Assembly: GCA_047618565.1 (NCBI GenBank)
Contig: JBLHKW010000001.1
Location: 99,019-163,018, forward strand
Direction: 5' to 3'
DNA: 64,000 nucleotides
From: Planctomycetota bacterium
GTDB taxonomy: Bacteria; Planctomycetota; UBA1135; GCA-002686595
This document shows positions 1,995-60,383 of the stretch, one piece after another. The notes beneath the pieces were generated by a model. That model was not told where the DNA came from and ran no database searches. It was given only the letters and a program-made list of their open reading frames with translations. The translations under genes were made by a program, and so were the position numbers. Every line of letters begins with the position of its first letter. The first letter of the stretch is position 1.

Positions 1995-2336
1995 GTCAGA
2001 TACAGGCTTGGGGCGAGGGCCCTTTTGCTACGTGGAGACGTAGGCGTGAATCTTCAAGTAGAAGCGGCGTTCGAAAAACCGTCAACCCCATCCCATGCCG
2101 GTGCCTCGATCTCGTCGTGAAAACGGCTTGCATTGGCCCTCAGGACGCGTTCGCGGGAGCGGGGCAGCGCCCGCGAGCTTCGAAGCGCCGTTCATGGCAT
2201 CTCAGGGTCGGTCCAGGCGAGGAAAGTGGTAAAGATTGCCGTGATTGCGACATAAGTTATCGTTTAGCGGCTATGTTCAGTGCCCGATGTCGTATGTGGA
2301 AGCGAGTCCGTCCGCCAAACCCACAGGAGATGTCCC

Positions 2337-2633
2337 ATGGAGCAGATCGCGTCCCCGGAATCCAAGTTGTCGAGCGTCGAGCATGGAGCCGTGAGCTTCA
2401 GGGTGCTTGCCATCACCTTCGCAGGTCTGGGGGTCGTGCTCGGCGGGGTGGCCGTCGTCTCGGCTCTCGCGCCGGTGGGGGCGGATATTGAGCTCCTGGA
2501 CGCGCTGGTCAGGTCCCTCACCCCGGCCCTGAATTGTGCGATCTGCTTGATGCTCTTCTCGTTTCTCAGTCGCTTCAGCACGCTCTTCTGCACGACAGCT
2601 GCGTTGATACGCGAGATGCGTGAGGTCATCTAG
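2337..2633 (+). CDS. Small membrane protein (DUF2975-like partner of a YozG-type regulator)
   Basis: ATG 2337 is preceded by AGGAGA at a 7-nt spacing. Two hydrophobic helices are present. Only 2 nt separate its stop from the downstream HTH gene, the usual DUF2975/HTH pairing. Confidence 0.6.
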   Translation: MEQIASPESKLSSVEHGAVSFRVLAITFAGLGVVLGGVAVVSALAPVGADIELLDALVRSLTPALNCAICLMLFSFLSRFSTLFCTTAALIREMREVI

Positions 2634-2635
2634 GC

Positions 2636-2872
2636 GTGCCGATCAAAGTGCGGCTGGACGTCCTCATGGCCCTTCGCAAGGTGCGTGGGCTGGACCTGGC
2701 GAAGCGCGTCGGGATCACGCCCGCAAACCTGAGCAAGTTGAAATCCGGTCCCGTCAAGGCGATCCGCTTCTCAACCCTCGACGCTCTGTGTCGCGAGCTG
2801 CAATGCCAGCCGGGGGAACTGCTCGAGTATCAGGAAGCCGATGCCGTGGCCACGGACGGCGACGGAGATTGA
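2636..2872 (+). CDS. XRE/Cro-C1 family helix-turn-helix transcriptional regulator (YozG-like)
   Basis: 78 aa: MPIKVRLDVLMALRKVRGLDLAKRVGITPANLSKLKSGPVKAIRFSTLDALCRELQCQPGELLEY matches the short YozG-type HTH pattern. Confidence 0.9.
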   Translation: MPIKVRLDVLMALRKVRGLDLAKRVGITPANLSKLKSGPVKAIRFSTLDALCRELQCQPGELLEYQEADAVATDGDGD

Positions 2873-2958
2873 CGCCGGCGGTCCACGCCCTGCGGGGCGC
2901 GCGCAGACCGGCCCAGGATCTGGCCAACATCCCCATCGTCCGCGGCGTACGGTAGTGG

Positions 2959-3567
2959 ATGCGCACCATGATCCTGTTCGCCTCCGCGTTCCTCGTGTCC
3001 TGCTCTGCCACCGCGACTGCACCGGTGGAAAGCGATCCTCGCATCGCGAAGGTCGAAGCCTTCCGCGAGCTTCGAAGCATGGGGGACCGTGAGGCCGCCC
3101 GCGCACTGCTCAGCGCGGATGCCCGCATCTGGTGGGGCGAGAGGGATGGCCCCGGGTCCCCGTGGAGTCTGGAGGGTGGCCCCTGGAGCGACTGGGACGA
3201 TCATTTCGATGGATCGGCGAAGAGCGTGACGCCGTGGACGGCGGACGGCGAGCGCGTCTGGGCGGACATCCTCGAGAACAACGACTATTACAGGCTGACG
3301 GAGAGCCAGGCCCGAGCGTGGCGGGCGGTCTACTTCCTCGACAACGATGGGGCCATCGCCGGATTCCTTGTGGCCTCCTTGCCGCGGCCCGAAACGGACT
3401 CCAGCCGCGCCGACGAGTTCGAAGCGTGGGCTGTGCGGAACCGAGGCGCCGAGGCCGAGTACCTGATGCCGGGTGGCGAGATCGACCCCACGGGCGACCG
3501 GCCGGCGCGCATGCGCTCCTTGCTGAACGAGTGGCGTGCCGACGTGGGGCTACCCGCGCTCGACTGA
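2959..3567 (+). CDS. Hypothetical lipoprotein
   Basis: 202 aa with a signal peptide and lipobox (FASAFLVSC). Composition and GC3 look coding. No family recognised. Confidence 0.7.
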   Translation: MRTMILFASAFLVSCSATATAPVESDPRIAKVEAFRELRSMGDREAARALLSADARIWWGERDGPGSPWSLEGGPWSDWDDHFDGSAKSVTPWTADGERVWADILENNDYYRLTESQARAWRAVYFLDNDGAIAGFLVASLPRPETDSSRADEFEAWAVRNRGAEAEYLMPGGEIDPTGDRPARMRSLLNEWRADVGLPALD

Positions 3568-5184: not shown

Positions 5185-6852
5185 ATGACCATGGGAATCA
5201 CGACCAGAGCTCTCACCTATCTGCTTCCAGCGATCCTCTGCGGCAACGCGTCCGTCGGAGCCTTCGGCGCACAGGTGCCCATGGACAATTCTCCAGGCGC
5301 GCTGGGTCTGATCCCGATGCCGCAGATCCTGGAGCGGGCTGCCGGTGAGTTCCGCATGGTGGCGAGCACGAGCATCGCCTTCACGGAAGCGTCCGCGCGC
5401 CCCGTCGCCGAGTATCTCGCTGGCCGACTACGACCGGCGACGGGGTTGGCGCTGGAACTCGTCGAGAGCCGACTCGCCGCGGGGGCGATCCAGCTGAACC
5501 TGAGAGCGGAGCTTGTACAGAGGCTCGGCACCGAAGGCTACACGCTCGAGTGCAAGCCGGACGGAGTGGCCCTCACCGCCGGCACTCCCGCGGGACTCTT
5601 CTACGGATGCCAGACCCTGTGCCAGTTATTGCCGCCAGCCATCGACAGTCCATCTCGCGTAGCCGACGTGGACTGGGTCGCAGCCTGCGTACGCATCGAG
5701 GATCAGCCGCGTTTCGAGTGGCGTGGTTTGATGCTCGACACGGCGCGCCACTTCTTCCCGGTCGAGTTCGTGAAGCGTTGCATCGACCTGATGTCGCGCC
5801 ACAAGCTGAATCGATTCCACTGGCACCTGACCGAGGATCAGGGCTGGCGCATCGAGATCCTGGCGCACCCTGAACTGACCCTGGTGGGTTCGCGGCGCAA
5901 GGAGACACCGATACCGAGTGACCGCGGGCGTGGTGATGGTCAGCCCCATACGGGCTTCTACACCCAGGCCGAGATTCGCGAGGTGGTCGCGTACGCCGCA
6001 GAACGCTTCGTCACCGTGGTGCCCGAGATCGAACTGCCCGGGCACGCGCTGGCCGCCCTCGCGACCTACCCCGAGATATCCTGCACGGGCGGGCCGTTCG
6101 ACGTTGGCACCCGCTGGGGCGTGCACGAGGATGTGTACTGCGCCGGGAACGAGGCCACGTTTGCGTTCCTGGAGAGCGTCCTGGCGGAGGTTGTCGAGCT
6201 CTTCCCCGGTGCTTTCGTTCACATCGGTGGTGACGAGTGTCCAAAGGCGCGCTGGAAGGAGTGCGCGAAATGCCAGGCCCGCATGCGCGAGAACGAGCTG
6301 AAAGACGAGCACGAGCTGCAGGCCTATTTCATCGAGCGCGTGGGACGTTTTTTGAACGCGCGTGGCAAGCGCTTGCTCGGCTGGGATGAGATCCTGGAGG
6401 GCCGGCTCGCACCGGGCGCGACGGTCATGAGCTGGCGTGGCGTCGAAGGGGGGGTCGCGGCGGCCAACATGGGACACGATGTGGTCATGAGCCCGACCTC
6501 GCACTGCTACTTCGACTACTACCAGTCCGAGGATCGGGACGCGGAGCCGCCGGCGATCGGAGGGCTCCTGTCTCTGGAGAAGGTCTACAGCTTCGAGCCG
6601 CTCCCACCACAGCTCGACGAGGCGGGTGCGCGCCATGTGCTCGGCGCCCAGGGCAACCTCTGGACCGAGTACGTTCAGAATGCGGCGCAGGCCGAGTACA
6701 TGGCCTTTCCGCGAGCGGCCGCCCTGGCCGAGCGCGTCTGGTCGTCGAGGGACGCGCGCGACTTTGGCGATTTCCGTCGGCGTATGGCGCGCCACGCGAA
6801 GCGCCTGGATGCCATGGGAGTGAACTATCGCAAGCTCGATGGGGGCGACTGA
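5185..6852 (+). CDS. GH20 beta-N-acetylhexosaminidase, secreted
   Basis: The signal peptide runs from ATG 5185 (MTMGITTRALTYLLPAILCGNASVGAFG). GH20 hallmarks are RGLMLDTARHF, FHWHLTEDQGWR and HIGGDE. Confidence 0.9.
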   Translation: MTMGITTRALTYLLPAILCGNASVGAFGAQVPMDNSPGALGLIPMPQILERAAGEFRMVASTSIAFTEASARPVAEYLAGRLRPATGLALELVESRLAAGAIQLNLRAELVQRLGTEGYTLECKPDGVALTAGTPAGLFYGCQTLCQLLPPAIDSPSRVADVDWVAACVRIEDQPRFEWRGLMLDTARHFFPVEFVKRCIDLMSRHKLNRFHWHLTEDQGWRIEILAHPELTLVGSRRKETPIPSDRGRGDGQPHTGFYTQAEIREVVAYAAERFVTVVPEIELPGHALAALATYPEISCTGGPFDVGTRWGVHEDVYCAGNEATFAFLESVLAEVVELFPGAFVHIGGDECPKARWKECAKCQARMRENELKDEHELQAYFIERVGRFLNARGKRLLGWDEILEGRLAPGATVMSWRGVEGGVAAANMGHDVVMSPTSHCYFDYYQSEDRDAEPPAIGGLLSLEKVYSFEPLPPQLDEAGARHVLGAQGNLWTEYVQNAAQAEYMAFPRAAALAERVWSSRDARDFGDFRRRMARHAKRLDAMGVNYRKLDGGD

Positions 6853-19418: not shown

Positions 19419-20596
19419 TCCAGCGCGGCTGCAGTGTGCAGCTCAGTCGGCTGGCGCGGTCGGTGCGCGAGTCGGCGACCATGGCGGGCAGCAGCGCACC
19501 CATTCCTCATCCGCACCCGATCAATCTCGCGATAGGGCAGCCCGCCGAGGGCCCGGCGCGCGTGGTGATCGAGGCCGTGGTCAAGGCCGCGCGCGACGGT
19601 CAGACGCGCTACGGTCCGCCCGCGGGCCTGCCAGCGCTGCGCGCCCTCGCCGCCCGGGATCAGTTTGAGAAGACTGGAATCACGCGCGCCGTCAAGGAGG
19701 TCATCATCACTCCCGGCGGCAAGCCGGCGCTGCTCGATGCCCTGCGCTGCATGCTGGATCCCGGAGATGAGGTGCTGGTCCTCGCGCCCTACTGGCCGTC
19801 CTTTCTGCAACAGGTGGAGCTCGCCGGTGGGCGCGCTCGCATCGTGCCGCCCGGACCCGGCCTGCTACCCGATCCGGATACGATCGCCGCAGCCTGCACG
19901 GAGCGCACGCGCGTCATCATCCTGAACGACCCCTGCAATCCGACTTCCCGCACCCTCGGCGCCAGCCTCCTGCGACGCATCGGCGAGGTCGCCCATCAGC
20001 GCGGCCTGTGGATCCTGGCCGACCAGGTGTACGCAGACCTGGTCCTCGATGGGGATCACGTCCCCTTGCTGGCCGTTGCGCCCGAACTCGCCGAGCACAC
20101 CGTGGTCGTGGAGAGCTTCTCGAAGCGTTTCGCCATGACGGGCTATCGGGTCGGCTACGCGTGCGGTCCTGCGCCCGTGATCGGGGCCATGACGCGTCTC
20201 GCGACCGCATCGACCACCTGCGTCAACTCCCTGGCCCAGCACGCCGCCATCGCGGCTCTGTCCATGGACGACACCTGGATTAGGGCGCAGCGCGCGCGTT
20301 ATCGACGCCGTCGCGACCGCGCTTGGGCGCTGCTCGAGTCCCTGGGATGCGCCCCGGCGTGTCTGCCCGATACGGCGTTCTACCTGTTCTTCCCCGTGCC
20401 GCCGGGGGCAGAGGATGATGCGATCGTGCGCGATCTACGCCTGAACGAGGGCTTGACCGTGCTCTCGGGGAGCGACTTCGGAGCGCCCGGCCACATCCGC
20501 CTCTCCTGCGGGGCGTCGGACGCCGAGCTCGATGAAGCGGGTCTTCGCCTGAGGCGCTTCCTGGGCGCGGCGACCGTTTTCGACGCCCCCCGCTAG
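19415..20596 (+). CDS. Class I/II pyridoxal-phosphate aminotransferase (aspartate/aromatic/prephenate type)
   Basis: GTG 19415 overlaps the upstream TGA (GTGA), with GGGAGAG just upstream. N-terminal LSRLARSVRESAT and the PLP-lysine motif SFSKRFAMTGYRVGY are present. An alternative start is GTG 19436. Confidence 0.9.
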   Translation: MIQRGCSVQLSRLARSVRESATMAGSSAPIPHPHPINLAIGQPAEGPARVVIEAVVKAARDGQTRYGPPAGLPALRALAARDQFEKTGITRAVKEVIITPGGKPALLDALRCMLDPGDEVLVLAPYWPSFLQQVELAGGRARIVPPGPGLLPDPDTIAAACTERTRVIILNDPCNPTSRTLGASLLRRIGEVAHQRGLWILADQVYADLVLDGDHVPLLAVAPELAEHTVVVESFSKRFAMTGYRVGYACGPAPVIGAMTRLATASTTCVNSLAQHAAIAALSMDDTWIRAQRARYRRRRDRAWALLESLGCAPACLPDTAFYLFFPVPPGAEDDAIVRDLRLNEGLTVLSGSDFGAPGHIRLSCGASDAELDEAGLRLRRFLGAATVFDAPR

Positions 20597-20771
20597 CAGT
20601 CCGTTGAAAAAGTCCCGTAGCGAGACGAAGCCATCTTCGTCGCAGCAAGGAGTGCGAAGTCGAGACGGCGGAGGCGGCCCTGTAGGGCCGCTGAGCACGG
20701 CTCGACGAGCACGACGCAGCGGCGGCGGAGAGGGCGAAGTCGAGCAGGGAGTTTTTAGGGCGGGCTGCTAG
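20593..20771 (+). repeat. Type-1 palindromic MITE/REP-like element (179 bp) flanked by CTAG on both sides
   Basis: The termini CAGTCCGTTGAAAAAGTCCC and GGGAGTTTTTAGGGCGGGCTG are inverted. Internal hairpins are GACGAAGccatCTTCGTC and GCGGCCCtgtaGGGCCGC. It is the reverse complement of 42770-42897 except for a ~51-bp internal insert. Confidence 0.85.
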
Positions 20772-41081: not shown

Positions 41082-42773
41082 ATGAGCTCTCGACAGTTCC
41101 CGAGTCTGATCATCCTTCCTGTTCTCGCGGGCATCGCGGCGTGCGCCGGGGCGCCCGACGCTTTCGTTGCCGGTGGCGATGCGTTCGATGGAGGCGCGTC
41201 GAGTGTCGGCAGGCAAGGCATGGTCTCGAGTGCGCATCCCCTCGCCACAGAGGCGGGCCTGTCGATTCTGAGGCGTGGTGGGAACGCCTTCGATGCGGCG
41301 GTCGCCATCGCTTCGACCCTGAATGTGGTCGAGCCGATGATGTCCGGGATGGGCGGCTACGGGACGATCCTCGCCTTTGATGCCGAAGCGGGTGAAGCGC
41401 ATTACCTCGATGCGAGCGGCAAGATTCCCCGGGCCGTGGACGCGGATCTCTACCGCGCGCCGACCCCCGGCTACATGGAGAACCGACGCAATGCCAAGGC
41501 CATCTCGACCCCCGGTGCCGCCAACGCATGGGAGGCGATGTCGGAACGCTTCGGCGTGTTGCCATGGGAGAGCCTGTTTGAGCCTGCCATCGACGCGGCA
41601 CAGGGCGGTTTCGTGCTCGACGAGCGCGCCGCGGGCTGGATTGCCCTCGCCTATCCCGAGTTCCCCGCCCACGCACGTGAGTTCTACGGCAAGGATGGAG
41701 TTCCGCTGGCCGCCGGCGACCGACTGATTCAGGTGGACCTCGCCGGTTCACTCAGGGCTGTCGCCGAGCAGGGTGCCGCGGCGGTCTACAGTGGTGCGAT
41801 CTCCAGGGCGATCGATCGGGCCATGCAGGAGTCCGGTGGATTCCTCTCCGCGCATGACCTGGCGGCTGACCGGGCAGAGTGGTGGCGCCCGATCTCGATC
41901 GACTATCGCGGGTACGAGGTGATCACACCGTCTGCTCCGGCCGGCGCGTTCCCGATGCTCGTGCGCCTCGGGATGATGGAGCTCGAGGACAACCAGGCTC
42001 TCGGGCACAACTCGGTTGCTTACCTGCATCGCTTCGCAGAGGTCACCAAGCACGCGTACTGGACAAGGCTGGCCTATTCCGGGGACCCCGACGTGAAGCC
42101 GCCGCCCTACGAGCGACTGTTCTCGGCCCGCTATCTAGCGGAGCAAGAGGCCAAGCTGAACCTGGAAAAGGCCTCCGAGTTCGACACCAGCGGGATCGTG
42201 TCGGCGAACCAGAACAAGAACACCACGCACTTCGTGGTGGCCGATGAACACGGCAACGTCGTCTCCGCCACCGTCACGTTGGGCAATCTCTTCGGCAGTC
42301 GGGTCATGCCCGCGGGGACGGGGATCTGGCTGAACAACTCGCTCGCTTACTGCACCTTTGAGCCCGCCGGAAACCCGATGGACGCGCATCCCGGTCGGCG
42401 CAAGCTGTCCAGCGACTCGCCGACCTTCGTGATGCGCGATGGCCGACCCTGGGTGGCATTGGGCACACCTGGCGGGCACACCATCACCCAGACCTGCGCC
42501 CAGATGGTGATGAACGTGATCGACTTCGGCATGGACATCCAGGCTGCCATCGCTGCGCCCAGGATTGCCTTCAATGTGCCCGATCACCTGGACGTCGAGG
42601 AGGCGATTCCCGAGGCGACACGCACAACTCTCGAGGCGATGGGGCACCGTCTACGCCTGCGCACGCTCGGAAATGCCCACGGCCTCATGATCGAGTACGG
42701 CGAGGACGGAGTACCGCGCAGGTTCCTGGGTGGGACCGACCCCCGTGGCACGGGAACCGCAGTTGGGTACTAG
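41082..42773 (+). CDS. ggt: Gamma-glutamyltransferase lipoprotein
   Basis: The start is ATG 41082 with lipobox LAGIAAC. GGT blocks are GMVSSAHPLATEAGLSILRRGGNAFDAAVA and TTHFVVADEHGNVVSATVTLGNLFGS. The stop TAG lies inside the CTAG of the adjacent repeat. Confidence 0.9.
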   Translation: MSSRQFPSLIILPVLAGIAACAGAPDAFVAGGDAFDGGASSVGRQGMVSSAHPLATEAGLSILRRGGNAFDAAVAIASTLNVVEPMMSGMGGYGTILAFDAEAGEAHYLDASGKIPRAVDADLYRAPTPGYMENRRNAKAISTPGAANAWEAMSERFGVLPWESLFEPAIDAAQGGFVLDERAAGWIALAYPEFPAHAREFYGKDGVPLAAGDRLIQVDLAGSLRAVAEQGAAAVYSGAISRAIDRAMQESGGFLSAHDLAADRAEWWRPISIDYRGYEVITPSAPAGAFPMLVRLGMMELEDNQALGHNSVAYLHRFAEVTKHAYWTRLAYSGDPDVKPPPYERLFSARYLAEQEAKLNLEKASEFDTSGIVSANQNKNTTHFVVADEHGNVVSATVTLGNLFGSRVMPAGTGIWLNNSLAYCTFEPAGNPMDAHPGRRKLSSDSPTFVMRDGRPWVALGTPGGHTITQTCAQMVMNVIDFGMDIQAAIAAPRIAFNVPDHLDVEEAIPEATRTTLEAMGHRLRLRTLGNAHGLMIEYGEDGVPRRFLGGTDPRGTGTAVGY

Positions 42774-51836: not shown

Positions 51837-52263
51837 TGGGGTAATCCTGAGAATCGCGGGGGAAGGGGACCCCTGTAGATCCTCGCGGCTTGCCGAAGAG
51901 TGGCAGCAAAGTGTGGTTTTTGAAAAGTGGCGTCCGCATCGAGGGCCGGCGGTGCCGCGCGATCGGGACCCGGTCTGGTTTTCTCGAATAGCTGCCACCG
52001 TTCCGCTTCCGGGCGGACTGGCTTCCGGTCGGACTGACGAGCGCGTGCTAACTCCTACTCCACGCCCCATCCCTGCGGAATCGCGCCGCCGGGCCGCCTT
52101 CGGCAACGGAATCCGCTGTGCCGCGTGGAGCTGATGGTCCTGTCCGCAGGCCCCGGACCCGGCGACCCCCTGGGCCGAGCTCGGCCTCCAGGTGCGCCGA
52201 TGATTCGGACCCGGTTGTACTTGTCGTGCCTCATGGAGGATGATCGACGGCCGCTCCGCGACC

Positions 52264-53124
52264 ATGAACCTCCTACCGATCCTCTACAGCCTGGCATCCG
52301 CTCTCGCGTGGGGCGCCGGGGACTTCAGCGGCGGCGTCGCGAGCAAGCGAGGCGACACCTATCTCGTCGTCCTGATCTCCCAGGCGCTCGGCGGTCTGTT
52401 GCTGGCCGGGCTGGCGCTTCTGTATTCCGAGAGCCTGCTTCGAAACGTGGACCTGGTGTACGGTGCCGTCGCAGGCATCGCTGGAATGGTGGGGCTCCTG
52501 GCGCTCTACACCGGACTGGCTTCGGGCCGGATGAGCGTGATCGCCCCCCTGGCAGCCATCGTCTCGGTCACCCCGCCCGTTGTCGTCGCCGCCTTGACGG
52601 ACGGAGTTCCGGGAGCCATGACGATCGTGGGCTTCGGGTTTGTGCTGATCGCGGTCTGGTTGCTCTCCGCCGGTGGCGGAGCAACGGGCCGGATCCAGGG
52701 TAGCGAGCTGAGGTGCGCGCTCATCGCGGGTGTCGCATTCAGCGTCTATTTCGTCTTCATCGACCGCGTCAGTACCGGAGCCATCTTCGTTCCGCTCGTC
52801 GCCGCGCGGGTAGCCTCGGTCTCCTTGCTGGCCTTGTATCTGCGCCTGCGTCCGGGCTCGCTGGCCAGGTTGCAGCAGGGCGACCGGGCGCGAGGCTCCC
52901 TGCTCGCCATCATCGCGTTGGCGGGCCTGTTCGATGCAGCGGGAAACGCCTTCTTCGCCCTCGCTGTCCAGGCTGGCCGGCTGGACGTGGCCGTCATTCT
53001 CGCCTCCCTGTACCCGGCCGGGACGGTCTTCCTGGCATGGATTTTCCTGAAGGAGCCAGTGACGCGCCTGCAATGGCTAGGCGTGCTCTCGGCGCTGATC
53101 GCGCTCGCGCTCATCGCGATATAG
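52264..53124 (+). CDS. EamA/DMT-family transporter
   Basis: The start is ATG 52264. Ten hydrophobic helices are present. The N-terminus ALAWGAGDFSGGVASKR is typical of EamA repeats. Confidence 0.85.
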   Translation: MNLLPILYSLASALAWGAGDFSGGVASKRGDTYLVVLISQALGGLLLAGLALLYSESLLRNVDLVYGAVAGIAGMVGLLALYTGLASGRMSVIAPLAAIVSVTPPVVVAALTDGVPGAMTIVGFGFVLIAVWLLSAGGGATGRIQGSELRCALIAGVAFSVYFVFIDRVSTGAIFVPLVAARVASVSLLALYLRLRPGSLARLQQGDRARGSLLAIIALAGLFDAAGNAFFALAVQAGRLDVAVILASLYPAGTVFLAWIFLKEPVTRLQWLGVLSALIALALIAI

Positions 53125-53138
53125 GCGAATGTACCGAG

Positions 53139-53302
53139 CTAGCAGCCCGTGGCGAAACTCACGACGCGCTCAAATCCGCCAGGCTCCGCCCTGGCGGCGT
53201 TGCGCTTTCTCCGAGTATCCACGAATACGCGTCGTCAGCGCGCCTTGCCAGATCGAATCCTGACGCTTCGAGCCCGCCGTGACTTTCACCACGGGCTGCT
53301 AG
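53139..53302 (+). repeat. Type-2 palindromic MITE/REP-like element (164 bp) flanked by CTAG
   Basis: The termini CAGCCCGTGGCGAAACTCACG and CGTGACTTTCACCACGGGCTG are inverted. The internal hairpin is CCGCCAGGctccgcCCTGGCGG. It is about 95% identical to 57060-57224, in the same orientation. Confidence 0.9.
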
Positions 53303-53478
53303 TGCAGGCTCCTGGTGGCGACGGAGCTACCGGCGCCTGGCCATCCGGGTGGGTCGCTCTGCCAGAAATGAGCCCTCCTGGTAGAATTGACGTCGCCGGG
53401 CCTCTTCAGATTGACTCTGACCAGGCGTGCTCGGGACCGCGGCCCCAGGCATCGATCGGGATCGGACAGCAACTCAAC

Positions 53479-56400
53479 ATGCGGCACCTCAGTTTCACGG
53501 TCTTCTCGATCGGCTTCTTACTCCTTCTTGGCGCCGAGGCTCTCGCAGCCGCGCTGCACGAGGAGGCGCCCACCCTGCCGACGTTTTTCGCGACGGTGGA
53601 AGACCAGGGTACCTACACCGTCCCGACGGGGATGTCTTTTGCGGATGACGGCAGCTACTTCGTCATCGGCAAGAGGGGGCGGGTCTATTTTCACGACGGG
53701 ACCGATCCGCAGGCTCAGCTCTTCCTCGACCTGCGCGACGAGACCAATCCCGACGGAGATCGCGGGCTGCTCGGCGTCGAGGTGCATCCGGGCTTCTCAC
53801 CCGATGGGGGACCGACGTCGTGGGTGTACTTCCTGTACACGGTCTCGCCGATCTTCGGGGAGAACACGGACTACAACGAGAACGACATGTACGCCTTCTC
53901 GCGCCTCACGCGCTACAAGGCGCACATGCCCGGCGGCGGATCCGGGACGGATGTGCTCGCGGACATGAGTTCGCGCCAGGTGCTGCTCGGGAATCAGCTC
54001 GCGGACGGCACCGTCCCCGATGGAATCGCCAGCCTGTACAGCATCCACGCGCTGGGTTCGCTGCGCTTCGCTTCCGACGGTTCGTTGATCCTCACCACGG
54101 GCGATGGTGCACACCACAACGATCCGGGCGGTTTCGACGCGGCTGGCTTCGACAGTTTCACGCACCCGACCACTGGCCTGCGTGGACCCATGCCCCTGGA
54201 TCAGGACTCGGGCGCCTTTCGCGCTCAGGATCCGCGCAGCCTGGCGGGCAAGGTCCTGCGCATCGATCCCGAGACGGGTCTCGGCTATCCATCCAACCCG
54301 TTCTACGACGGCGATCCGGCCAGCAATTCCTCCAAGGTATGGGCGCTCGGCCTGCGCAACCCTTTCCGCGTGACCATCGAGCCCGGCACGGGTGGCAGTG
54401 ATCCAGCCGAGGGGCAACCGGGCACCATCTACATCGGTGACGTCGGCTGGGTGAGCTGGGAGGAGGTCAATGTCTCCCGTGGTGGCGAGAACTTCGGCTG
54501 GCCGTGTTTCGAGGGCCCCGATCCCAATGCGATCTACCAGGCCTACACGTCGTCCGGCCCGCCCTTCGACTACCCGGACTGCAACAGCGCAAGTCCGGGC
54601 ATCCCGACCGCGCCGTTGCTGGCCTACAGTCGAGATGATGGATCGCTGCTCACCCCGTCGGGCATGCACTTCGATGTGGACGGAGCTCCCCAGGCCGGAT
54701 TCACCGGAAGCTGCGCCCTGGGTGGCGCGCACTACGAGGGCAACGGCAGTTATCCGCCGGAGTACGACGGCCGGTTGTTCTTCTGTGACTTCTCCGAGGG
54801 CTGGGTCAAGACCCTGGAGAGCGACCCGCAGGGCAACGTCATCGCGATGCGCGACTTCGGTGAGGACTTTGCGCGCCTGGTCGACGTGCGCCTGAACCCG
54901 GTGAACGGGGATCTCTACTTCCTCTTGATGGAGAGGGACTTCAACGGGCACGTGCATCGACTGTACTACGATTCCAACCTGGCGCCGATCGTGGAGCTGA
55001 GCGCGACGCCCACCCATGGCGATGCGCCGCTCGCGGTTCAGTTCGACGGCAGCGGGTCGATCGATGGCGATGGCGGTCCGATCGACTTTCTCTGGGACTT
55101 CGGCGACGGCTCCCCGTCCTCGAGCGCGGCCAGCGTGCAGCACACCTACCAGCTGGATGGGGCCTACGTGGCGCGATTGACCGTCACCGACGCGGACGGA
55201 GCCGCGGCGATCGGCGAGGTGACCATCCTGGTCGGAAACACGCCGCCGGTAGCGACCCTGGTGGAACCGTCCAACGGGCTGCTGTTCGTGGCTGGCGACA
55301 TTGTGCAGCTGGTCGGCACGGGGCAGGATGCCGAGGGACCGATCGCCGAGTACGAATGGTCGGTAGACCTGCACCACAACTCGCACGCACATCCCGACAG
55401 CTTCACGTCGCCCCTCGAGCAGGACGTCCTGGTGACCGAGGACCACAGCCCGCTCGGGGATTCCTATTACTACGAGGTGCACTTCACCGTGCGCGACGCG
55501 GACCTGATCGAGGATACCCGTACGGTGTTTTTGCTGCCCCTCGATCGCGTGCGCGATGTCACGGGCACGTTGCGCCCGATCAGCCACCTGGACAGTGCCA
55601 GTCCCCCGAACCCCACCGCGGCGGGCAACCACGACATCGAGGTGATCCGGGACGGCGTGTTTCCGGGGCTCGCGTCCTCGGATATTCTGAGCCAGTACGA
55701 CACGCGCCACGTGAGTCCGCCGCCCGGCGATCACTGGGTCGGCTTCGAGTACGAGCAGCCCCCGAGTACGGAGACGCGTTTCATCTCGATCAGCTTCCAG
55801 GAGGGCGTGCACCTGCCGGGCGGCGGGTGGTTCGAGAGCTTCACGGTCGAGGTGCGCGAGGCGGGGCAATGGCAGGCGGTGTCGAATCTCGAGTCGCGCC
55901 CGCCCTATCCCTTCGCCCTGGCGCAGCAGAGTGGCTTCGACGGCACGAACTTCGACAGGTACGAGCTGCATTTCGACCCGATCTACGGGGATGCCATCAG
56001 GCTGCGCGGCGTCCCCGGCGGCGATCTGGAGTTCATCAGCGTGGCGGAGTTGCGGCCCAAGCTGGTGTCGATCGTCCCGCCCGCCGAGCCCTTGCTCGAT
56101 GTGAGCGCCGATGGTGAGATCATCGCGCGTCTGTTCGAGCTCGACCCGCCCACGCCCGAGGGCCGCGGCAACCTGGATCCCGAGACGATCCGTAACGGCA
56201 CCTACCCACCCGAGTCCTCGCTCAGTGACTTCGGCCAGTTCGACACGTTTCACTTTGGCGAGCAGGGCGACGACGACTGGATCGGCTACCGTTTCGACGC
56301 GCTACAGGCATTCACGCGCCTGGTGTTCCAGGAGGGACAACATTCCCCCCAGGGCGGACGCTTCGACACGTTGAACGTCGAGGTGCAGGTCACTGACGGC

Positions 56401-57063
56401 GCGGCATGGATCCCCGTGACCAGCCTGACGGTCTCCCCGGTCTACCCTGGCAACCCGTCTCTGTCCGCTTCCTACGAGACCTTCACCTTGGATTTCGATC
56501 CAGTGATCGCGCGTAGCATTCGAATCCAGGGCGATCCCACGGGATCCGTCGGTTACATCGGTGTGGGGGAGCTGCGTGTCTTCGTGGACGCCGCGGATGA
56601 TCTCGCGTTCGAGACCTACTGCTTCTGCGTCTCGGGCCCATGCGGCAACTCCGATTCCTCCGCCGGCTGCGCCAACTCGAGCGGCAGCGGAGCGCACCTC
56701 GACGTCCTGACCGGTAGCAATGACGTGGCCGCTGACGATCTGGTCATTGCCATCAGCAACATGCCGCCGAGTACCTTCGGTCTGATCTTCAAGGGCCGCA
56801 CGCAGATTGCACCCTTCTTCAAGGACGGACTGCGGTGCGTCGGACAGGTCGCCGGTCGTTTTCCGATCCGCCAGGCCGACAGCTCCGGCACCCTGCTGGA
56901 GGGCCCCGGGATGGTCGATCACTTCGCCTCACACCCATCGCAGTCGTTCCACATCACCCCCGGGACGACCTGGAAGTTCCAGGGTTGGTACCGCAACAAC
57001 GCAGGGCCATGTGGAACCGGGTCGAACCTCACCAACGGCCTGAGCATCACCTTCGCGCCCTAA
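53479..57063 (+). CDS. 1194-aa secreted protein: PQQ-dependent sugar dehydrogenase-like propeller + PKD domain + two tandem ~185-aa beta-sandwich modules + shared Cys-containing C-terminal domain
   Basis: The start is ATG 53479 with signal MRHLSFTVFSIGFLLLLGAEALA. The upstream part of the ORF is read-through of repeat 53139-53302.
- SGDH block: DRGLLGVEVHPGF.
- PKD: APLAVQFDGSGSIDGDGGPIDFLWDFGDG..YVARLTVTDADG.
- Duplicated modules end in ..(V/I)(A/G)ELR. Confidence 0.9.
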   Translation: MRHLSFTVFSIGFLLLLGAEALAAALHEEAPTLPTFFATVEDQGTYTVPTGMSFADDGSYFVIGKRGRVYFHDGTDPQAQLFLDLRDETNPDGDRGLLGVEVHPGFSPDGGPTSWVYFLYTVSPIFGENTDYNENDMYAFSRLTRYKAHMPGGGSGTDVLADMSSRQVLLGNQLADGTVPDGIASLYSIHALGSLRFASDGSLILTTGDGAHHNDPGGFDAAGFDSFTHPTTGLRGPMPLDQDSGAFRAQDPRSLAGKVLRIDPETGLGYPSNPFYDGDPASNSSKVWALGLRNPFRVTIEPGTGGSDPAEGQPGTIYIGDVGWVSWEEVNVSRGGENFGWPCFEGPDPNAIYQAYTSSGPPFDYPDCNSASPGIPTAPLLAYSRDDGSLLTPSGMHFDVDGAPQAGFTGSCALGGAHYEGNGSYPPEYDGRLFFCDFSEGWVKTLESDPQGNVIAMRDFGEDFARLVDVRLNPVNGDLYFLLMERDFNGHVHRLYYDSNLAPIVELSATPTHGDAPLAVQFDGSGSIDGDGGPIDFLWDFGDGSPSSSAASVQHTYQLDGAYVARLTVTDADGAAAIGEVTILVGNTPPVATLVEPSNGLLFVAGDIVQLVGTGQDAEGPIAEYEWSVDLHHNSHAHPDSFTSPLEQDVLVTEDHSPLGDSYYYEVHFTVRDADLIEDTRTVFLLPLDRVRDVTGTLRPISHLDSASPPNPTAAGNHDIEVIRDGVFPGLASSDILSQYDTRHVSPPPGDHWVGFEYEQPPSTETRFISISFQEGVHLPGGGWFESFTVEVREAGQWQAVSNLESRPPYPFALAQQSGFDGTNFDRYELHFDPIYGDAIRLRGVPGGDLEFISVAELRPKLVSIVPPAEPLLDVSADGEIIARLFELDPPTPEGRGNLDPETIRNGTYPPESSLSDFGQFDTFHFGEQGDDDWIGYRFDALQAFTRLVFQEGQHSPQGGRFDTLNVEVQVTDGAAWIPVTSLTVSPVYPGNPSLSASYETFTLDFDPVIARSIRIQGDPTGSVGYIGVGELRVFVDAADDLAFETYCFCVSGPCGNSDSSAGCANSSGSGAHLDVLTGSNDVAADDLVIAISNMPPSTFGLIFKGRTQIAPFFKDGLRCVGQVAGRFPIRQADSSGTLLEGPGMVDHFASHPSQSFHITPGTTWKFQGWYRNNAGPCGTGSNLTNGLSITFAP

Positions 57064-57224
57064 CCGCGCGTGGTGAAACTCACGACCCGCTCAAATCCGC
57101 CAGGCTCCGCCCTGGCGGCGTTGCGCTTCCTCCGAGTATCCACGAATACGCGTCGTCAGCGCGCCTTGCCAGCTCGAATCCTGACGGCTTCGAGCCCGCC
57201 GTGACTTTCACCACGGGCTGCTAA
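57060..57224 (+). repeat. Type-2 palindromic MITE/REP-like element (165 bp) flanked by CTAA
   Basis: This is a direct copy of 53139-53302, with about 8 differences including 1 indel. CTAA lies at both ends. The TAA of the left CTAA is the stop codon of the upstream 1194-aa gene. Confidence 0.9.
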
Positions 57225-57283
57225 CGCTCGAAGCTGACGTCGGCACCACCGAGACGGACTCCCTGGACGAGGTGGCGCCAATC

Positions 57284-57620
57284 TCAGCGCTGTACGGGAG
57301 CCCTGAGGTAGATCCGGCTCTGGACTCCCGAGTTAGCCACCGCGATATCGGTGTACCCGTCCTCGTTCAGGTCGCCGATGGCCAGGCCGTACGAGGATCC
57401 GGGCGGGTCGTCAAGGCGGACCTCGCGATATTCTGCGCCCGCGTACTCGTTGAAGAACACGCCGTTGGCTTGATCGGCATGGCCGACGACGGCAACGGCG
57501 CGTGATTCGTCCTCGCCGGTGCCGAACGGAATGCGCTGCTCGAAGCGCGCCTGGCCGTCGCTGAGGATCACGAAAGTCTGCGGCGATTGAGCGTCCCTTC
57601 GGGCCGGCCAGCGACCGCAC
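57284..57620 (-). pseudogene. Remnant of an FG-GAP/VCBS-repeat protein gene
   Basis: The 95-aa C-terminal fragment has an FG-GAP motif (GLAIGDLNEDGYTDIAVANSG). Sequence upstream continues only in a shifted frame (..GRSIAADF..) and then hits stops. No N-terminal body is present. Confidence 0.45.
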
Positions 57621-57854
57621 TTCTACGTGTTCGTCACGCGCCTGGCGCCTACGGGCAACACCTCGGCCCTTCGAATCGTCGACGCGCGCGAGATCGCGCG
57701 AGCGCCGACCGAGGCTGTTCGGGGCCCCCGCGTGGGACCGTGGTCGTGTGCTTGCAGCCTGCCGCCGAGGGATCGCGTCGCCCGGGGCGCAAGCCGGTCG
57801 AGGATTGGCACGCAGGCGTGTACAATCCCCCGCTCACCCGAAGCCATCCGAATC

Positions 57855-59078
57855 ATGATCCACAACCTTCTCATTGCAGCCGCCCTGCTCGCCCCCCAGG
57901 TCGCCAAGCACAAGACCGCCGACACCGTCAAGCTCTCTACCGGCAAGGAGTACGTGGGCCGCGTCGTCTACGAGGACGAGAGCAAGATCCTCATGCGCGT
58001 GCGGTCCAAGCCGCACGAGTTCGACGTGGCTGATGTGGCCGCGGTGCAGACCCTCGAGCGTAGCCAGCGTGAGCTCTTCGCGCGTCTGGACGGCGGGGCT
58101 GCGCTCGATGCGAGCGGGTTGCTCGAGCTGGCGGATTTTGCTGCCGAGCGCGGCCTCGTGGGCGAGGCACGCATGCTCTACGCCAAGGCGATCTTTGCCG
58201 ACGCGGAGAGCCCGGAGGCCTTCGAGGCTCTCGATGGCCGCGAGCACAAGCAGAAGGGCTGGCAGGTCAAGATCGGCAAGCGCTGGAAGACCCTGCCCGA
58301 GATCCGCGAGCGGCATGGCAAGTGGAAGGAGCATTTTGAGGTCGAGACCACGCACTTCATCGTGCGTTCCGATATGCCCGCCGAGCGGGTCGTGGACCTG
58401 GCGCTGGATGTCGAGCGCTATTACCTGGCCTTCTACGATGTACTTGGCGCGCGCCTGAATCTGCACGCCTTTGATGCGCTGCCGACCGTCAATGCCTACG
58501 AGGAATCTGGGCGCATGCCCAAACCTCCCACGGCGATCGATGCGTGGTACGCGGAGGTGCGCAACGAGTTCGATATCAGTGCGGATGGGGGAGTCAACCG
58601 GACGCTGATTGCGCGGGAAATGACGCGTCTGATGCTCAGCAACTCGCTGCGCAAGACCTTCGGCAAGGCCGGCAACCTGACGCCCTGGGCCGCGCGCGGT
58701 ATCGCGGACATGTTCGCGTCGGCGGTGCTCGTCGGTCAGCGCCCGATGGCCTTCGACTTCACGCGCGTCTTCGATGAGTACTTCCGCGTGCACGCGCAGG
58801 CGAAGAAACCGGTCTCGATCAAGAGGCTGCTGACCATGGGCAACGCCGAGTTCTGGGGGCAGGGCGACGGATCCAACGAGGCTGCCGCGTACACCCTGGT
58901 GCACTTCATGATCCACGGCCAGGACGGCAAGTGGTCCGACGGCTTCCGCGACTTCCTGGAGAGCTCATACAACGGCAAGGGGTCAGCCACCCACTTCGAG
59001 AAGGCCCTCGGGCTTCGCAACCTGAAAGAACTCGAAGAGAGCTGGAACGCGTACGTGAAGGCCGCCGCCGGCGTGTGA
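57855..59078 (+). CDS. Hypothetical secreted protein (possibly DUF1570-like)
   Basis: The start is ATG 57855 with signal MIHNLLIAAALLAPQVA. The segment ETTHFIVRSDMPAERVVDLALDVERYYLAFYDVLG resembles the planctomycete DUF1570 pattern. The family call is weak. Confidence 0.75.
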   Translation: MIHNLLIAAALLAPQVAKHKTADTVKLSTGKEYVGRVVYEDESKILMRVRSKPHEFDVADVAAVQTLERSQRELFARLDGGAALDASGLLELADFAAERGLVGEARMLYAKAIFADAESPEAFEALDGREHKQKGWQVKIGKRWKTLPEIRERHGKWKEHFEVETTHFIVRSDMPAERVVDLALDVERYYLAFYDVLGARLNLHAFDALPTVNAYEESGRMPKPPTAIDAWYAEVRNEFDISADGGVNRTLIAREMTRLMLSNSLRKTFGKAGNLTPWAARGIADMFASAVLVGQRPMAFDFTRVFDEYFRVHAQAKKPVSIKRLLTMGNAEFWGQGDGSNEAAAYTLVHFMIHGQDGKWSDGFRDFLESSYNGKGSATHFEKALGLRNLKELEESWNAYVKAAAGV

Positions 59079-59162: not shown

Positions 59163-60290
59163 TCAGTCGATCACCTGCTCCAGTATGGCGAAGTTGCCCG
59201 GGTTCCAGGCGTAGGCCAGGACGTAGAGTCGTTCGCGCCCGTCCGGCTGGCGCACGCTGCGGAAGGCCGCGTTGTGGATATGGGTGAAGCCCTCGAGACC
59301 CAGGTCGCGACCGATGTTCAGTTCGGCGACCAGGTTGCCCTGCTCCAGGATGTAGATCGGTGCCGGGGTTGCGCCGCCCGGGCCTTTCAGGCATCCGACC
59401 AGTGCCAGGTCGCCGTGGTAGTCGACGTCACAGGGCATGCAGCCTTCCGGCAAGTCGATGCCGCCGATGTAGCGCCCCGCGCGCGAGTAGGACTCGAGTC
59501 GCGCGTTGGCACGGTCGGCGATGGTGAACGTATCGCTTCCTGGAAAGCGTGTGATGCCGTGCGCTGTTCCGAACTTGCCGTGCTCGCGCCCGCTCCCGCC
59601 GAATCGCAGGGCCTGCCACACTCCGACGAGTGGGTCTTGCTCGGAGCCCTGCAGTGGCAGCGTGGCAAAGCAGACGTTGTCCGCATAACCGTTGGTCGCG
59701 AACAGTTGCCCATCCACGTACTCGAGATCGCAAACCCTGAAGGGCGCACCATCCTCTCCATAAGGATTCGGGAAGGTGCGCAGGAGCTCGCCGTCGAGCG
59801 TAGCCAGGAACGCGCGCTGGGCCTCATCAGAGGGCAGCGCCAGATAGGGCTCGCCCGCTTCCCGGAACAGGCACGTGTTGTGCAGGTTCACGCCGCGGAT
59901 GGCCTTGTCGCCTCCGACCACGGCGATCGATGAGAGGTCCGGTGCCAGCCTGAGGATGCCCACGCCCTTGAGCGAGAAGTAGGTCGAGCCATCGCCACCT
60001 GCCGCTTCATGGTCCTGGGCGAAGCCACCGTGGGCGTTTACCAGGTGCTCGGCCATGGCGGTCGGGAACTCGACCGGCAGGTGACGGAAGACGTACGCGC
60101 CGCTGCCCGTGGTTCCGCCGCTTGTTGCCGCGAAGCGGGCCGGGGTCGCGCCGGACGCGTGACCTGCAGGCTGGTGTCGGGCGCCGTTGACGTTGGGGAC
60201 GTGGGATCCATGGGATCCGTGAACGTGAGCGGCATGGACCGGGAGTGCGAAGAGGATCGAGGCGGTCGCGATGAGCGGTATGAATCTCAT
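59163..60290 (-). CDS. Hypothetical secreted beta-propeller-like protein with His-rich N-terminus
   Basis: Only the last 375 codons of the 1101-aa ORF, from ATG 60290, look coding. The N-terminus carries signal MRFIPLIATASILFALPVHA followed by AHVHGSHGSHV. The remainder is antisense shadow of the next gene. Confidence 0.75.
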   Translation of the reverse strand: MRFIPLIATASILFALPVHAAHVHGSHGSHVPNVNGARHQPAGHASGATPARFAATSGGTTGSGAYVFRHLPVEFPTAMAEHLVNAHGGFAQDHEAAGGDGSTYFSLKGVGILRLAPDLSSIAVVGGDKAIRGVNLHNTCLFREAGEPYLALPSDEAQRAFLATLDGELLRTFPNPYGEDGAPFRVCDLEYVDGQLFATNGYADNVCFATLPLQGSEQDPLVGVWQALRFGGSGREHGKFGTAHGITRFPGSDTFTIADRANARLESYSRAGRYIGGIDLPEGCMPCDVDYHGDLALVGCLKGPGGATPAPIYILEQGNLVAELNIGRDLGLEGFTHIHNAAFRSVRQPDGRERLYVLAYAWNPGNFAILEQVID

Positions 60291-60383
60291 GGGTGGAAAC
60301 TCCTTGGGTGCGTAACAGCATACCAGGGCCGGAACCCGGGCTGCTCCCTTGCTACGATCGGGCTCGCGGGCGATGCTGATAGG

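Follow-up and report, generated by a model that had tools for sequence, protein, structure and literature searches.

The two repeats that bracket a secreted-protein gene in the window (the whole 64,000-nt stretch of Planctomycetota contig JBLHKW010000001.1 that was analysed) are very probably ordinary high-copy MITEs that inserted independently beside this gene, and their cassette-like arrangement would be a coincidence. The repeats, here termed copies A and B, and their surroundings are as follows.

52240-53124, + strand: EamA/DMT transporter gene, stop codon 14 nt upstream of copy A
53139-53142: left target-site duplication of copy A, CTAG, matching the other side
53143-53298, + strand: MITE copy A, A/B subfamily, 156 nt, CAGCCCGTGG...CCACGGGCTG
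53299-53302: right target-site duplication of copy A, CTAG
53359-53387, + strand: tentative promoter-like site, CTGCCA-17-TAGAAT, outside the MITE in the leader of the dehydrogenase gene itself
53479-57063, + strand: gene for a 1194-aa PQQ-type sugar dehydrogenase (GSDH)/PKD-domain protein, secreted, with signal peptide, GSDH domain and PKD domain; C-terminus and stop both native
57060-57063: left target-site duplication of copy B, CTAA; the TAA inside it is the stop codon of the dehydrogenase gene
57064-57220, + strand: MITE copy B, 157 nt, right terminus intact
57221-57224: right target-site duplication of copy B, CTAA
57284-57571, - strand: FG-GAP repeat remnant, 95 aa, ~1.5 repeats, a bystander

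Structure of copies A and B

As the original prediction held, copy A (53139-53302) and copy B (57060-57224) lie in direct orientation, are 95% identical (7 substitutions and 1 indel over 164/165 nt), are flanked by CTAG/CTAG and CTAA/CTAA, respectively, and enclose exactly one gene with its 176-nt leader (53303-53478). The longest runs identical between them measured ~37-43 nt. Terminal inverted repeats were present, with arms at 53139-53174 and 53267-53302 (36 nt, 86% complementary); their terminal 21 nt are near-perfect and their overall length is ~25-36 nt. The local hairpin CCGCCAGG/CCTGGCGG was also found, and copy A folded as a single long hairpin with -82.6 kcal/mol (z=-7.1 relative to shuffled sequences). 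The left terminus of copy B has decayed, reading CCGCGCG where CAGCCCG is expected, and its terminal CA is gone. From its sequence, copy B is probably immobile.

The termini of A and B had been proposed to be akin to those of another family, type 1. This kinship holds, with related termini on two further elements in the window, where the terminus motif occurred 10 times (0.72 expected):

20593-20771: type-1 MITE of the same IS superfamily, 179 nt including CTAG/CTAG, located where two convergent ORFs have their stop codons
42770-42899: type-1 MITE, internally deleted derivative, 130 nt, CTAG/CTGG

We regard A and B as MITEs on the grounds of their length (156-157 nt), the lack of a transposase, the terminal inverted repeats, the 4-bp target-site duplications, the dispersed copies and the termini shared with an IS. 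Because the duplications match within each copy (CTAG/CTAG for A, CTAA/CTAA for B), we infer that A and B inserted independently.

Copy number and dispersal

The terminal 21-mer was detected in at least 48 stretches of the source genome, the Planctomycetota MAG OFTM281, among the 97 matches listed, many of them at contig ends. The final 60 nt of contig JAJDEV010000276.1 from this MAG, the contig to which the window corresponds, are for example the start of another MITE copy. The MAG is fragmented because many of its contigs end in these repeats. About 25 full copies were ~80% identical to A and 97-99% identical among themselves, a level that was reached by sister-subfamily copies that are unlinked. 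No further copy of the A/B subfamily itself was found in the 48 OFTM281 stretches among the matches listed.

Sequencing depth points to many more A/B copies. A 69-nt unitig identical to B (57088-57156) had a depth of 662.8 in run X1 (single-copy depth: 28.3) and of 1066 in run X3 (single-copy depth: 48.2). By k-mer depth, the A/B subfamily comprises ~22 copies, those other than A and B being indicated by depth and contig ends and not by assembled loci; contigs of 8.6, 2.7, 11.2 and 9.3 kb at ~30x terminate in A/B-like ends. At position 57173, the majority letter (527/570) was that of A and not that of B, and A and B thus each carry private changes relative to the multicopy consensus. Moreover, runs X5-X8, from the metagenome of another study, contained a full copy in different flanks that differed from A by 3 mismatches and 1 indel. 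This copy is nearer to A than B is. Neither the dehydrogenase gene nor EamA was present in these four runs. The A/B-specific 25-mer had no match in JGI contigs and the terminal 21-mer none in viral contigs.

In the same genome, a second pair of copies in direct orientation (L055; 4798-4962 and 6587-6742) encloses one 539-aa ORF. The ~22 A/B copies indicated by k-mer depth, the nearer copy in the other metagenome and the near-identical unlinked copies of the sister subfamily largely make up the pattern that the original prediction had named as speaking against a tie to this gene. Its cassette, or any special link between A, B and the gene, is not supported in view of these copies, the unlike outer flanks, the second one-gene pair and the nearest relatives of the gene, which lack the repeats (see below).

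Target site and stop codons

In a census of 45 paired elements, the target-site duplications were CTAG/CTAG in 27, CTAA/CTAA in two, TTAA/TTAA in one and CTGG/CTGG in one, to which the CTAA/CTAA of copy B is additional. The duplication is a fixed 4 bp, mostly CTAG and sometimes CTAA, TTAA or TTAG. A 2-bp TA duplication inside CTAG, as in IS630-type elements, was excluded by the recurring CTAA/CTAA and TTAA/TTAA pairs. In 15 of 35 insertions, the site coincided exactly with the stop of a long ORF with high GC3. CTAG was counted 24 times where 204 were expected (~8-fold depleted; 66% G+C genome), and the count for CTAA was 6. Usable targets cluster at gene ends because CTAG is depleted and carries a stop codon on both of its strands. 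Insertions therefore pile up where CTAG/YTAR, rare at high G+C, supplies a stop codon, and the stop stays intact through the duplication. The MITE family thus illustrates neatly that the places where MITEs build up depend on the choice of target.

The native stop of the dehydrogenase gene was kept in this way, since it lies inside the duplicated target CTAA. The claim that copy B supplies the TAA was wrong: the homologues end at the same residue (...SVTFAP* and ...SITFAP*), which identifies the TAA as native.

We propose that an IS5/IS1182-superfamily transposase, supplied in trans, would recognise the MITE termini and insert the element at YTAR, overwhelmingly at CTAG, with duplication of these 4 bp; the duplication itself is evident from the flanks. 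Copy A would have inserted into a CTAG 14 nt past the EamA gene, and copy B into the CTAA that the last Pro codon of the dehydrogenase gene forms with the stop TAA. That one gene is bracketed would then be incidental to the high density of copies and their targeting of gene ends, and would not mark a mobile cassette. Neither an empty site nor a presence/absence polymorphism turned up in the data.

The partner insertion sequence

The ~21-25-nt termini of the MITEs (CAGCCCGTGGYGAAASTCACG) are the ends of IS of ~1.46-1.51 kb, whose product is a DDE transposase (IS5/IS1182 superfamily) of 450-460 aa. The left end of a 1516-bp IS (L071) is the exact 21-mer. Among 76 JGI loci with the transposase, 60 had ...CCACGGGCTG at the expected distance and 33 had both ends, the IS being mostly 1456-1515 bp long; some JGI IS carried the type-1-like ends CAGTCCGTTGAAAAAGTCC. 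Target-site duplications of JGI IS with both ends were CTAG (14 times), ATAG (twice) and TTAG (twice). Intact transposases contained DUF772 and DDE_Tnp_1, both above the Pfam cut-offs. Their best NCBIfam match was NF033551 (IS1182) at 159-170 bits, below the cut-off of 270 bits; the IS is filed under the IS5/IS1182 superfamily only. IS5 itself targets YTAR, and the IS5-group habit of a 4-bp duplication at YTAR is shared by the MITEs and the partner IS. An annotated IS5-family IS of plasmid pLB1 (AB244976.1; tnp, BAF30450.1), with a CTAA/CTAA duplication and a protein ~51% identical to the metagenome transposases, is likewise similar in its ends starting with CAG, the ...GAAGTC motif, the 4-bp duplication and a DUF772 and DDE transposase. 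Unlike IS of the IS5/IS1182 group, the elements in the window lack a transposase and have only the terminal 21-25 nt in common with them. Derivation of the MITE interior from the IS was accordingly rejected for the IS sequences sampled.

A search for transposase homologues returned mostly fragments of 185-325 aa in long-read MAGs. A tblastn search of the window and of ~350 kb of sequence from OFTM281 detected no transposase of the partner-IS family. Comparison of the L071 IS with runs X1 and X3 gave only 2-6x fragments from other organisms and no close relative at genome depth. As neither search revealed the partner IS in the source genome, we can only infer mobilisation in trans there. Near-identical termini occur in MAGs of Planctomycetota, Acidobacteriota, Kiritimatiellae and Victivallales. 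This distribution points to a widely shared IS/MITE system that is seemingly undescribed; our literature searches found no description of this MITE family.

The enclosed gene and its neighbours

The nearest homologues of the dehydrogenase (76-77% amino acid identity; two paralogues, on L002 and L004) are without the repeats and lie among unrelated neighbours. Apart from the source contig, the exact protein occurred solely on one 3.8-kb Logan contig, whose end falls within the repeats. The closest homologues of EamA (64-65%) belong to low-G+C organisms and adjoin ftsZ.

Judged from the sequence upstream of it, the dehydrogenase gene is probably driven by its own promoter, and TAGAAT/TACAAT-like hexamers are also found upstream of its homologues. 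A MITE-borne promoter was considered and rejected, as the sole promoter-like site falls outside the element.

The FG-GAP sequence beyond copy B is a genuine remnant, as had been proposed (homologous proteins: 339-6941 aa). The suggested tie to the repeats did not stand, since the truncated side points away from copy B. The dehydrogenase gene is intact with its own stop and nothing points to mobility; the locus itself is of little consequence.

Alternative explanations

We consider it unlikely that A and B are local sister copies, arisen by short-range transposition or gene conversion, and that recombination between them causes loss or amplification of the gene in a fraction of the population. 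The two belong to one subfamily, lie 3.9 kb apart and share ~95% identity, against ~80% with the remaining assembled copies of the MAG. Their identical runs of ~37-43 nt also exceed the minimal length for RecA recombination, so recombination between A and B would be possible in principle. However, both carry private changes relative to the ~22-copy consensus, and the copy from the other study is nearer to A than B is. No deletion or duplication junction was found in four runs at contig level (Logan contigs drop rare variants, and X4 is shallow). The sole link from B to A was one contig of depth 2 with 16 unmatched letters. In addition, with ~22 copies in an assumed ~6-Mb genome, chance alone would, by our estimate, give ~0.3 pairs of one subfamily within 4 kb. 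We found no evidence for movement of a cassette, deletion or amplification.

It is similarly improbable that the element goes beyond a selfish MITE and owes its retention at gene ends to a role as a structured RNA or DNA module, for instance a hairpin in the 3' UTR for transcript stabilisation or termination. The strong hairpin of copy A would fit such a role, as would the ~158-nt architecture, terminal hairpin and invariant CGCGCCTTG core common to Planctomycetota and Acidobacteriota copies and an interior that is not IS-derived. Compensatory changes were detected in 14 of 40 stem pairs; none of 500 shuffles reached the observed values and slid controls were lower. This covariation comes from a set of only 13 sequences and ~4 lineages, however, and pairing of the terminal inverted repeats is expected of any inverted-repeat element. 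The hairpin is not followed by a U-tract, Rfam gave no match at E <= 1 over 52000-58500, and orientation relative to the gene whose stop is hit was unbiased (5 against 5). The target sequence alone accounts for the location at gene ends. There is thus little likelihood that the ~158-nt element is a functional structured RNA/DNA module that spread across phyla on IS5/IS1182-type termini; if it were, the module's own function would lie in transposition or at transcript 3' ends.

That A, the gene and B form a MITE-flanked composite transposon, with the outer ends used together and the dehydrogenase gene mobile as a unit, is highly improbable: there is no common outer duplication (CTAG left of A, CTAA right of B), each copy has the same four letters on its inner as on its outer side, no second locus with the unit was found, the nearest homologues lack the repeats, and the gene's stop lies inside the duplication of B, as in many other single insertions. 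What invites this explanation is the direct orientation around exactly one gene, the intact outer termini (the only decayed one, the left end of B, is an inner end) and the precedent of Acinetobacter, where MITE pairs flanking class 1 integrons are described as composite-transposon-like (PMC6382973). Those integrons between two 439-bp MITEs, and the MITE-297 pair of pA297-3, resemble the present locus in having one MITE pair around cargo. The Acinetobacter units recur as a block in different contexts (PMC6382973), whereas at this locus A and B each sit within a separate duplication, the flanks on the two outer sides are unlike and the unit was not seen elsewhere.

Comparison with other small repeats

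As independently inserted MITEs, A and B resemble known prokaryotic elements (Correia/NEMIS of Neisseria, RUP of Streptococcus and MITEAba12 of Acinetobacter) in their small size (~157 bp), lack of coding sequence, terminal inverted repeats, short target-site duplication, dozens of copies, whole-element hairpin and IS-shared termini. They differ in the 4-bp CTAG/YTAR target, in place of TA or 9 bp, in the Planctomycetota host with relatives in Acidobacteriota, in the IS5/IS1182-superfamily partner, and in an interior that has no relation to the IS although its conservation extends across phyla. REP/BIME sequences are likewise multicopy, intergenic and hairpin-forming, often just past stop codons; REPs, however, are 20-40 bp long, lack target-site duplications and depend on RAYT (Y1), whereas the elements described here have a 4-bp duplication and the ends of a DDE-type IS. 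The cross-phylum conservation of the ~158-nt hairpin architecture is a mildly interesting point of an otherwise ordinary finding.

Two related repeats around a secreted dehydrogenase gene

Re-reading of the window confirmed the original prediction as far as it described two inverted-repeat elements, copies A and B, around a single gene: their positions, identity, terminal inverted repeats and flanks, and the gene itself, were as first described.

Features of the window
20593-20771 and 42770-42899: type-1 elements, related to A and B
52240-53124: EamA gene
53139-53302: copy A, CTAG/CTAG flanks
53359-53387: promoter-like site CTGCCA-17-TAGAAT, in the leader and outside copy A
53479-57063: dehydrogenase ORF, the only ORF between A and B, preceded by a 176-nt leader
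57060-57224: copy B, CTAA/CTAA flanks
57284-57571, minus strand: FG-GAP ORF, 95 aa

The two copies are 95% identical; 7 substitutions and a single 1-nt indel separate them. They are the sole long direct repeat of the 64-kb window besides one 41-nt pair, and a repeat HMM run on the window matched A and B only. Copy A has terminal inverted repeats with 36-nt arms (86% complementary) and folds into a single long hairpin (−82.6 kcal/mol; z=−7.1). Copy B also has terminal inverted repeats; its left terminus is decayed, with CCGCGCG in place of CAGCCCG. The predicted empty sites are GTACCGAG-CTAG-TGCAGGCT for A and TTCGCGCC-CTAA-CGCTCGAA for B.

The product of the enclosed gene, 1194 aa long, combines a signal peptide with a glucose/sorbosone-dehydrogenase (GSDH) and a PKD domain and is a member of a large Planctomycetota family. 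Its homologues end in ...SVTFAP-TGA and the window gene in ...SITFAP-TAA. Because these ends match, the TAA stop is native and is not, as had been thought, supplied by the downstream copy. Copy B inserted into C|TAA at the gene end, with the duplication preserving the stop. Copy A lies in a CTAG 14 nt past the stop of the EamA gene. Hexamers similar to the promoter-like site were found upstream of the dehydrogenase homologues, and the gene probably still has a promoter of its own.

The FG-GAP ORF matches about 1.5 repeats of proteins of 339-6941 aa and is thus a remnant, as originally proposed. A past rearrangement had been read from it. Its truncated 5′ side points away from B, toward a divergent gene starting near 57855, and its intact 3′ end faces B; there is no sign that the repeats had a part in its decay. 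Farther along, the mechanical ORFs at 59163-62468 (minus strand) and 57627-59078 (plus strand) are longer than the true genes: on the plus strand the probable start is 57855 (MIHNLLIAAALL..., with a signal peptide), and on the minus strand it is MRFIPLIATASILF, far inside the 1101-aa ORF.

A and B belong to a multicopy subfamily

The family of copies A and B (type 2) proved to be numerous. Its terminal 21-mer CAGCCCGTGGYGAAASTCACG, scanned against one genome per species, was found in at least 97 stretches, at least 48 of them from the MAG 'Planctomycetota bacterium OFTM281', which matches the source genome. The last 60 nt of OFTM281 contig JAJDEV010000276.1, evidently the window's contig, begin another copy. 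Many OFTM281 contigs terminate within the repeat, which indicates that it breaks the assembly. The other assembled copies of this MAG form a main subfamily, with at least approximately 25 full-length members on different contigs that are 97-99% identical to each other and ~80% identical to A. Among the OFTM281 matches listed from the scan there was no second A/B-like copy.

The number of A/B-subfamily copies was estimated from unitig depth in ice-metagenome runs. A unitig of 69 nt that matches B exactly (57088-57156) had a depth of 662.8 in run X1, compared with 28.3 for a single-copy gene, and of 1066 compared with 48.2 in run X3; both ratios correspond to about 22 copies. At position 57173, the letter of A was in the majority (depth 527/570). 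Several contigs of 2.7-11 kb from these runs, also at ~30x, end in A/B-like right termini. In runs X5-X8, from another study, we found a full copy with other flanks, separated from A by 3 mismatches and a single indel; neither EamA nor the dehydrogenase gene was present there. The ~22-fold depth, the A-type majority letter and the X5-X8 copy indicate that A and B are ordinary, slightly mutated members of their subfamily. From these comparisons, they appear not to be each other's nearest relatives, a relationship that had been considered at the outset.

Target sites and gene ends

The comparison of flanks covered 45 elements that retain both ends and come from several phyla; copy B was left out because of its decayed left end.

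Flank pairs of 45 elements
CTAG/CTAG: 27
CTAA/CTAA: 2
TTAA/TTAA: 1
CTGG/CTGG: 1
Other pairs, mostly single-base differences: 14

Copy B represents a third CTAA/CTAA pair. The repeated occurrence of matched non-CTAG flanks indicates a 4-bp duplication with the consensus YTAR and rules out a 2-bp TA duplication inside CTAG.

CTAG is about 8-fold under-represented in the window, with 24 sites where base composition predicts 204. There are 6 CTAA sites, 14 TTAG sites and a single TTAA. MITEs are flanked by 5 of the 24 CTAG and 2 of the 6 CTAA sites, both of the latter at copy B. CTAG holds TAG on either strand, and of 35 insertions, 15 had a duplicated TAG or TAA that is the stop codon of a long high-GC3 ORF. 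The orientation of the element relative to the stop-hit gene was unbiased (5 vs 5).

Two independent insertions best explain the bracketing

The bracketing of the dehydrogenase gene is best explained if A and B inserted independently of each other, both at targets at gene ends. The two flanks of A match each other (CTAG), as do those of B (CTAA), whereas the flanks at the two outer ends of the putative unit differ, which is predicted by two separate insertions and not by a composite move. The cassette moved as a unit that was first proposed is therefore not supported. One observation in its favour is that the decayed terminus of B is an inner end and both outer ends are intact, but this concerns one end of four and carries little weight. 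Moreover, the A-gene-B unit was found nowhere else: records of the exact protein are limited to the source contig and one 3.8-kb Logan contig, which ends within both repeats. The closest homologues, two paralogues with 77% and 76% amino acid identity on a single 509-kb contig (JGI Ga0315338_1000067), have unrelated neighbours and no repeats. A similar pair around one ORF also exists in the main subfamily, where two direct copies in L055 enclose exactly one 539-aa ORF with its stop within a duplication; contigs L065 and L085 have copies at both ends. By our own estimate for an assumed ~6-Mb genome, the ~22 subfamily copies would by chance form roughly 0.3 pairs spaced within 4 kb, and several such pairs would arise if all type-2 copies are pooled.

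The two full-length paralogues are ~100 kb apart in neighbourhoods that differ from each other, which suggests that genes of this family tend to be duplicated or relocated in this lineage.

Recombination between A and B is possible in principle, given runs of full identity of up to about 37-43 nt. The deletion or duplication of the gene that had been envisaged left no joint among the contigs of four runs, a level at which rare variants could escape. One contig of X1-X3 at full depth (31-52x) joins window positions 54375 and 55091, skipping 715 nt. Its shorter side is only 21 nt and the two places have no common k-mers, so that it is probably a paralogous dehydrogenase gene and not a deletion.

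An insertion sequence with the same ends

The elements represent a new MITE family of a known kind, apparently undescribed in the literature, which from its ends and flanks would depend on a transposase of IS5/IS1182 type that duplicates 4 bp at CTAG/YTAR sites. In L071, a Vicinamibacterales genome, a 1516-bp IS at 1761-3276 has the exact 21-mer as its left end and ...CTTCTTCCACGGGCTG as its right end; its transposase is a broken copy with DUF772 and DDE domains and several frame changes. In L050, the same IS is interrupted at nt 233 by a ~1.9-kb insertion. A homologue in a Bryobacterales genome ends with CTAG|CAGCCCGTGGCAG.

In JGI metagenomes, 80 loci matched the first 186 aa of the transposase. 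The sequence ...CCACGGGCTG was present at the expected distance in 60 of 76 loci examined, and both ends were found in 33, nearly all spanning 1456-1515 bp, with duplications including CTAG/CTAG (14), ATAG/ATAG (2) and TTAG/TTAG (2). Some of these IS have type-2-like ends (CAGCCCGTGGTGAAAGTC...) and others type-1-like ends (CAGTCCGTTGAAAAAGTCC...), which places the type-1 and type-2 MITEs of the window in this IS group. Intact transposases of 452 and 464 aa matched DUF772 and DDE_Tnp_1 above the Pfam cut-offs; their best NCBIfam match, IS1182, reached 159-170 bits (cut-off 270), and the partner can be filed only under the IS5/IS1182 superfamily. Plasmid pLB1 carries an IS annotated as 'IS5 family' with a 51% identical protein; its ends read CAGGCCGTTGACGAAGTC... 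and its duplication is CTAA/CTAA. Most transposase homologues in the databases are 185-325-aa fragments with DUF772 alone, many from long-read MAGs; these fragments and the frame changes in L071 may reflect either sequencing errors or decay.

Similarity between the MITEs and the IS is limited to the terminal 21-25 nt. No partner-type transposase was found in the reachable OFTM281 sequence; the MITEs of this genome would presumably be mobilised in trans.

The interior of the ~158-nt copies

Between Planctomycetota, Vicinamibacterales, 'Ca. Multivorans' and 'Ca. Marinacidobacterium', the ~158-nt copies agree in length, in an invariant CGCGCCTTG segment, in the segment GCGTTGC and in a small hairpin at the terminus, where 4 of 4 pairs show compensatory changes. 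Double changes occurred in 14 of 40 predicted pairs in a sample of 13 sequences from about 4 lineages, where pairing of the terminal inverted repeats is trivial. The observed values were reached by none of 500 shuffles, and slid controls were clearly lower. Even in this small sample the interior is conserved, and it is not derived from the IS.

Neighbouring repeats and short derivatives

Many main-family copies of OFTM281 adjoin a second repeat that ends in ...GCCTCATGAATSAYCCGGG|CTAG and is conserved over at least 70 nt (L044, L058, L052, L064, L066, L076, L065, L084, L085 and L095). This second repeat resembles the end of another element that targets CTAG, which suggests that different elements accumulate at the same CTAG sites. 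The left flank of the X6-X8 copy resembles this repeat (...CATGAATTATTCGGT), and in L066 two MITEs lie side by side. Elsewhere, termini are nearly back to back within ~30-62 nt (L013:3661-3722, L057:~2603-2634, L078:~1973-2000 and L088:~5710-5765), as in CAGCCCGTGGTGAAACTCACGAAGGGCTG. These short derivatives may be internal deletions or excision remnants.
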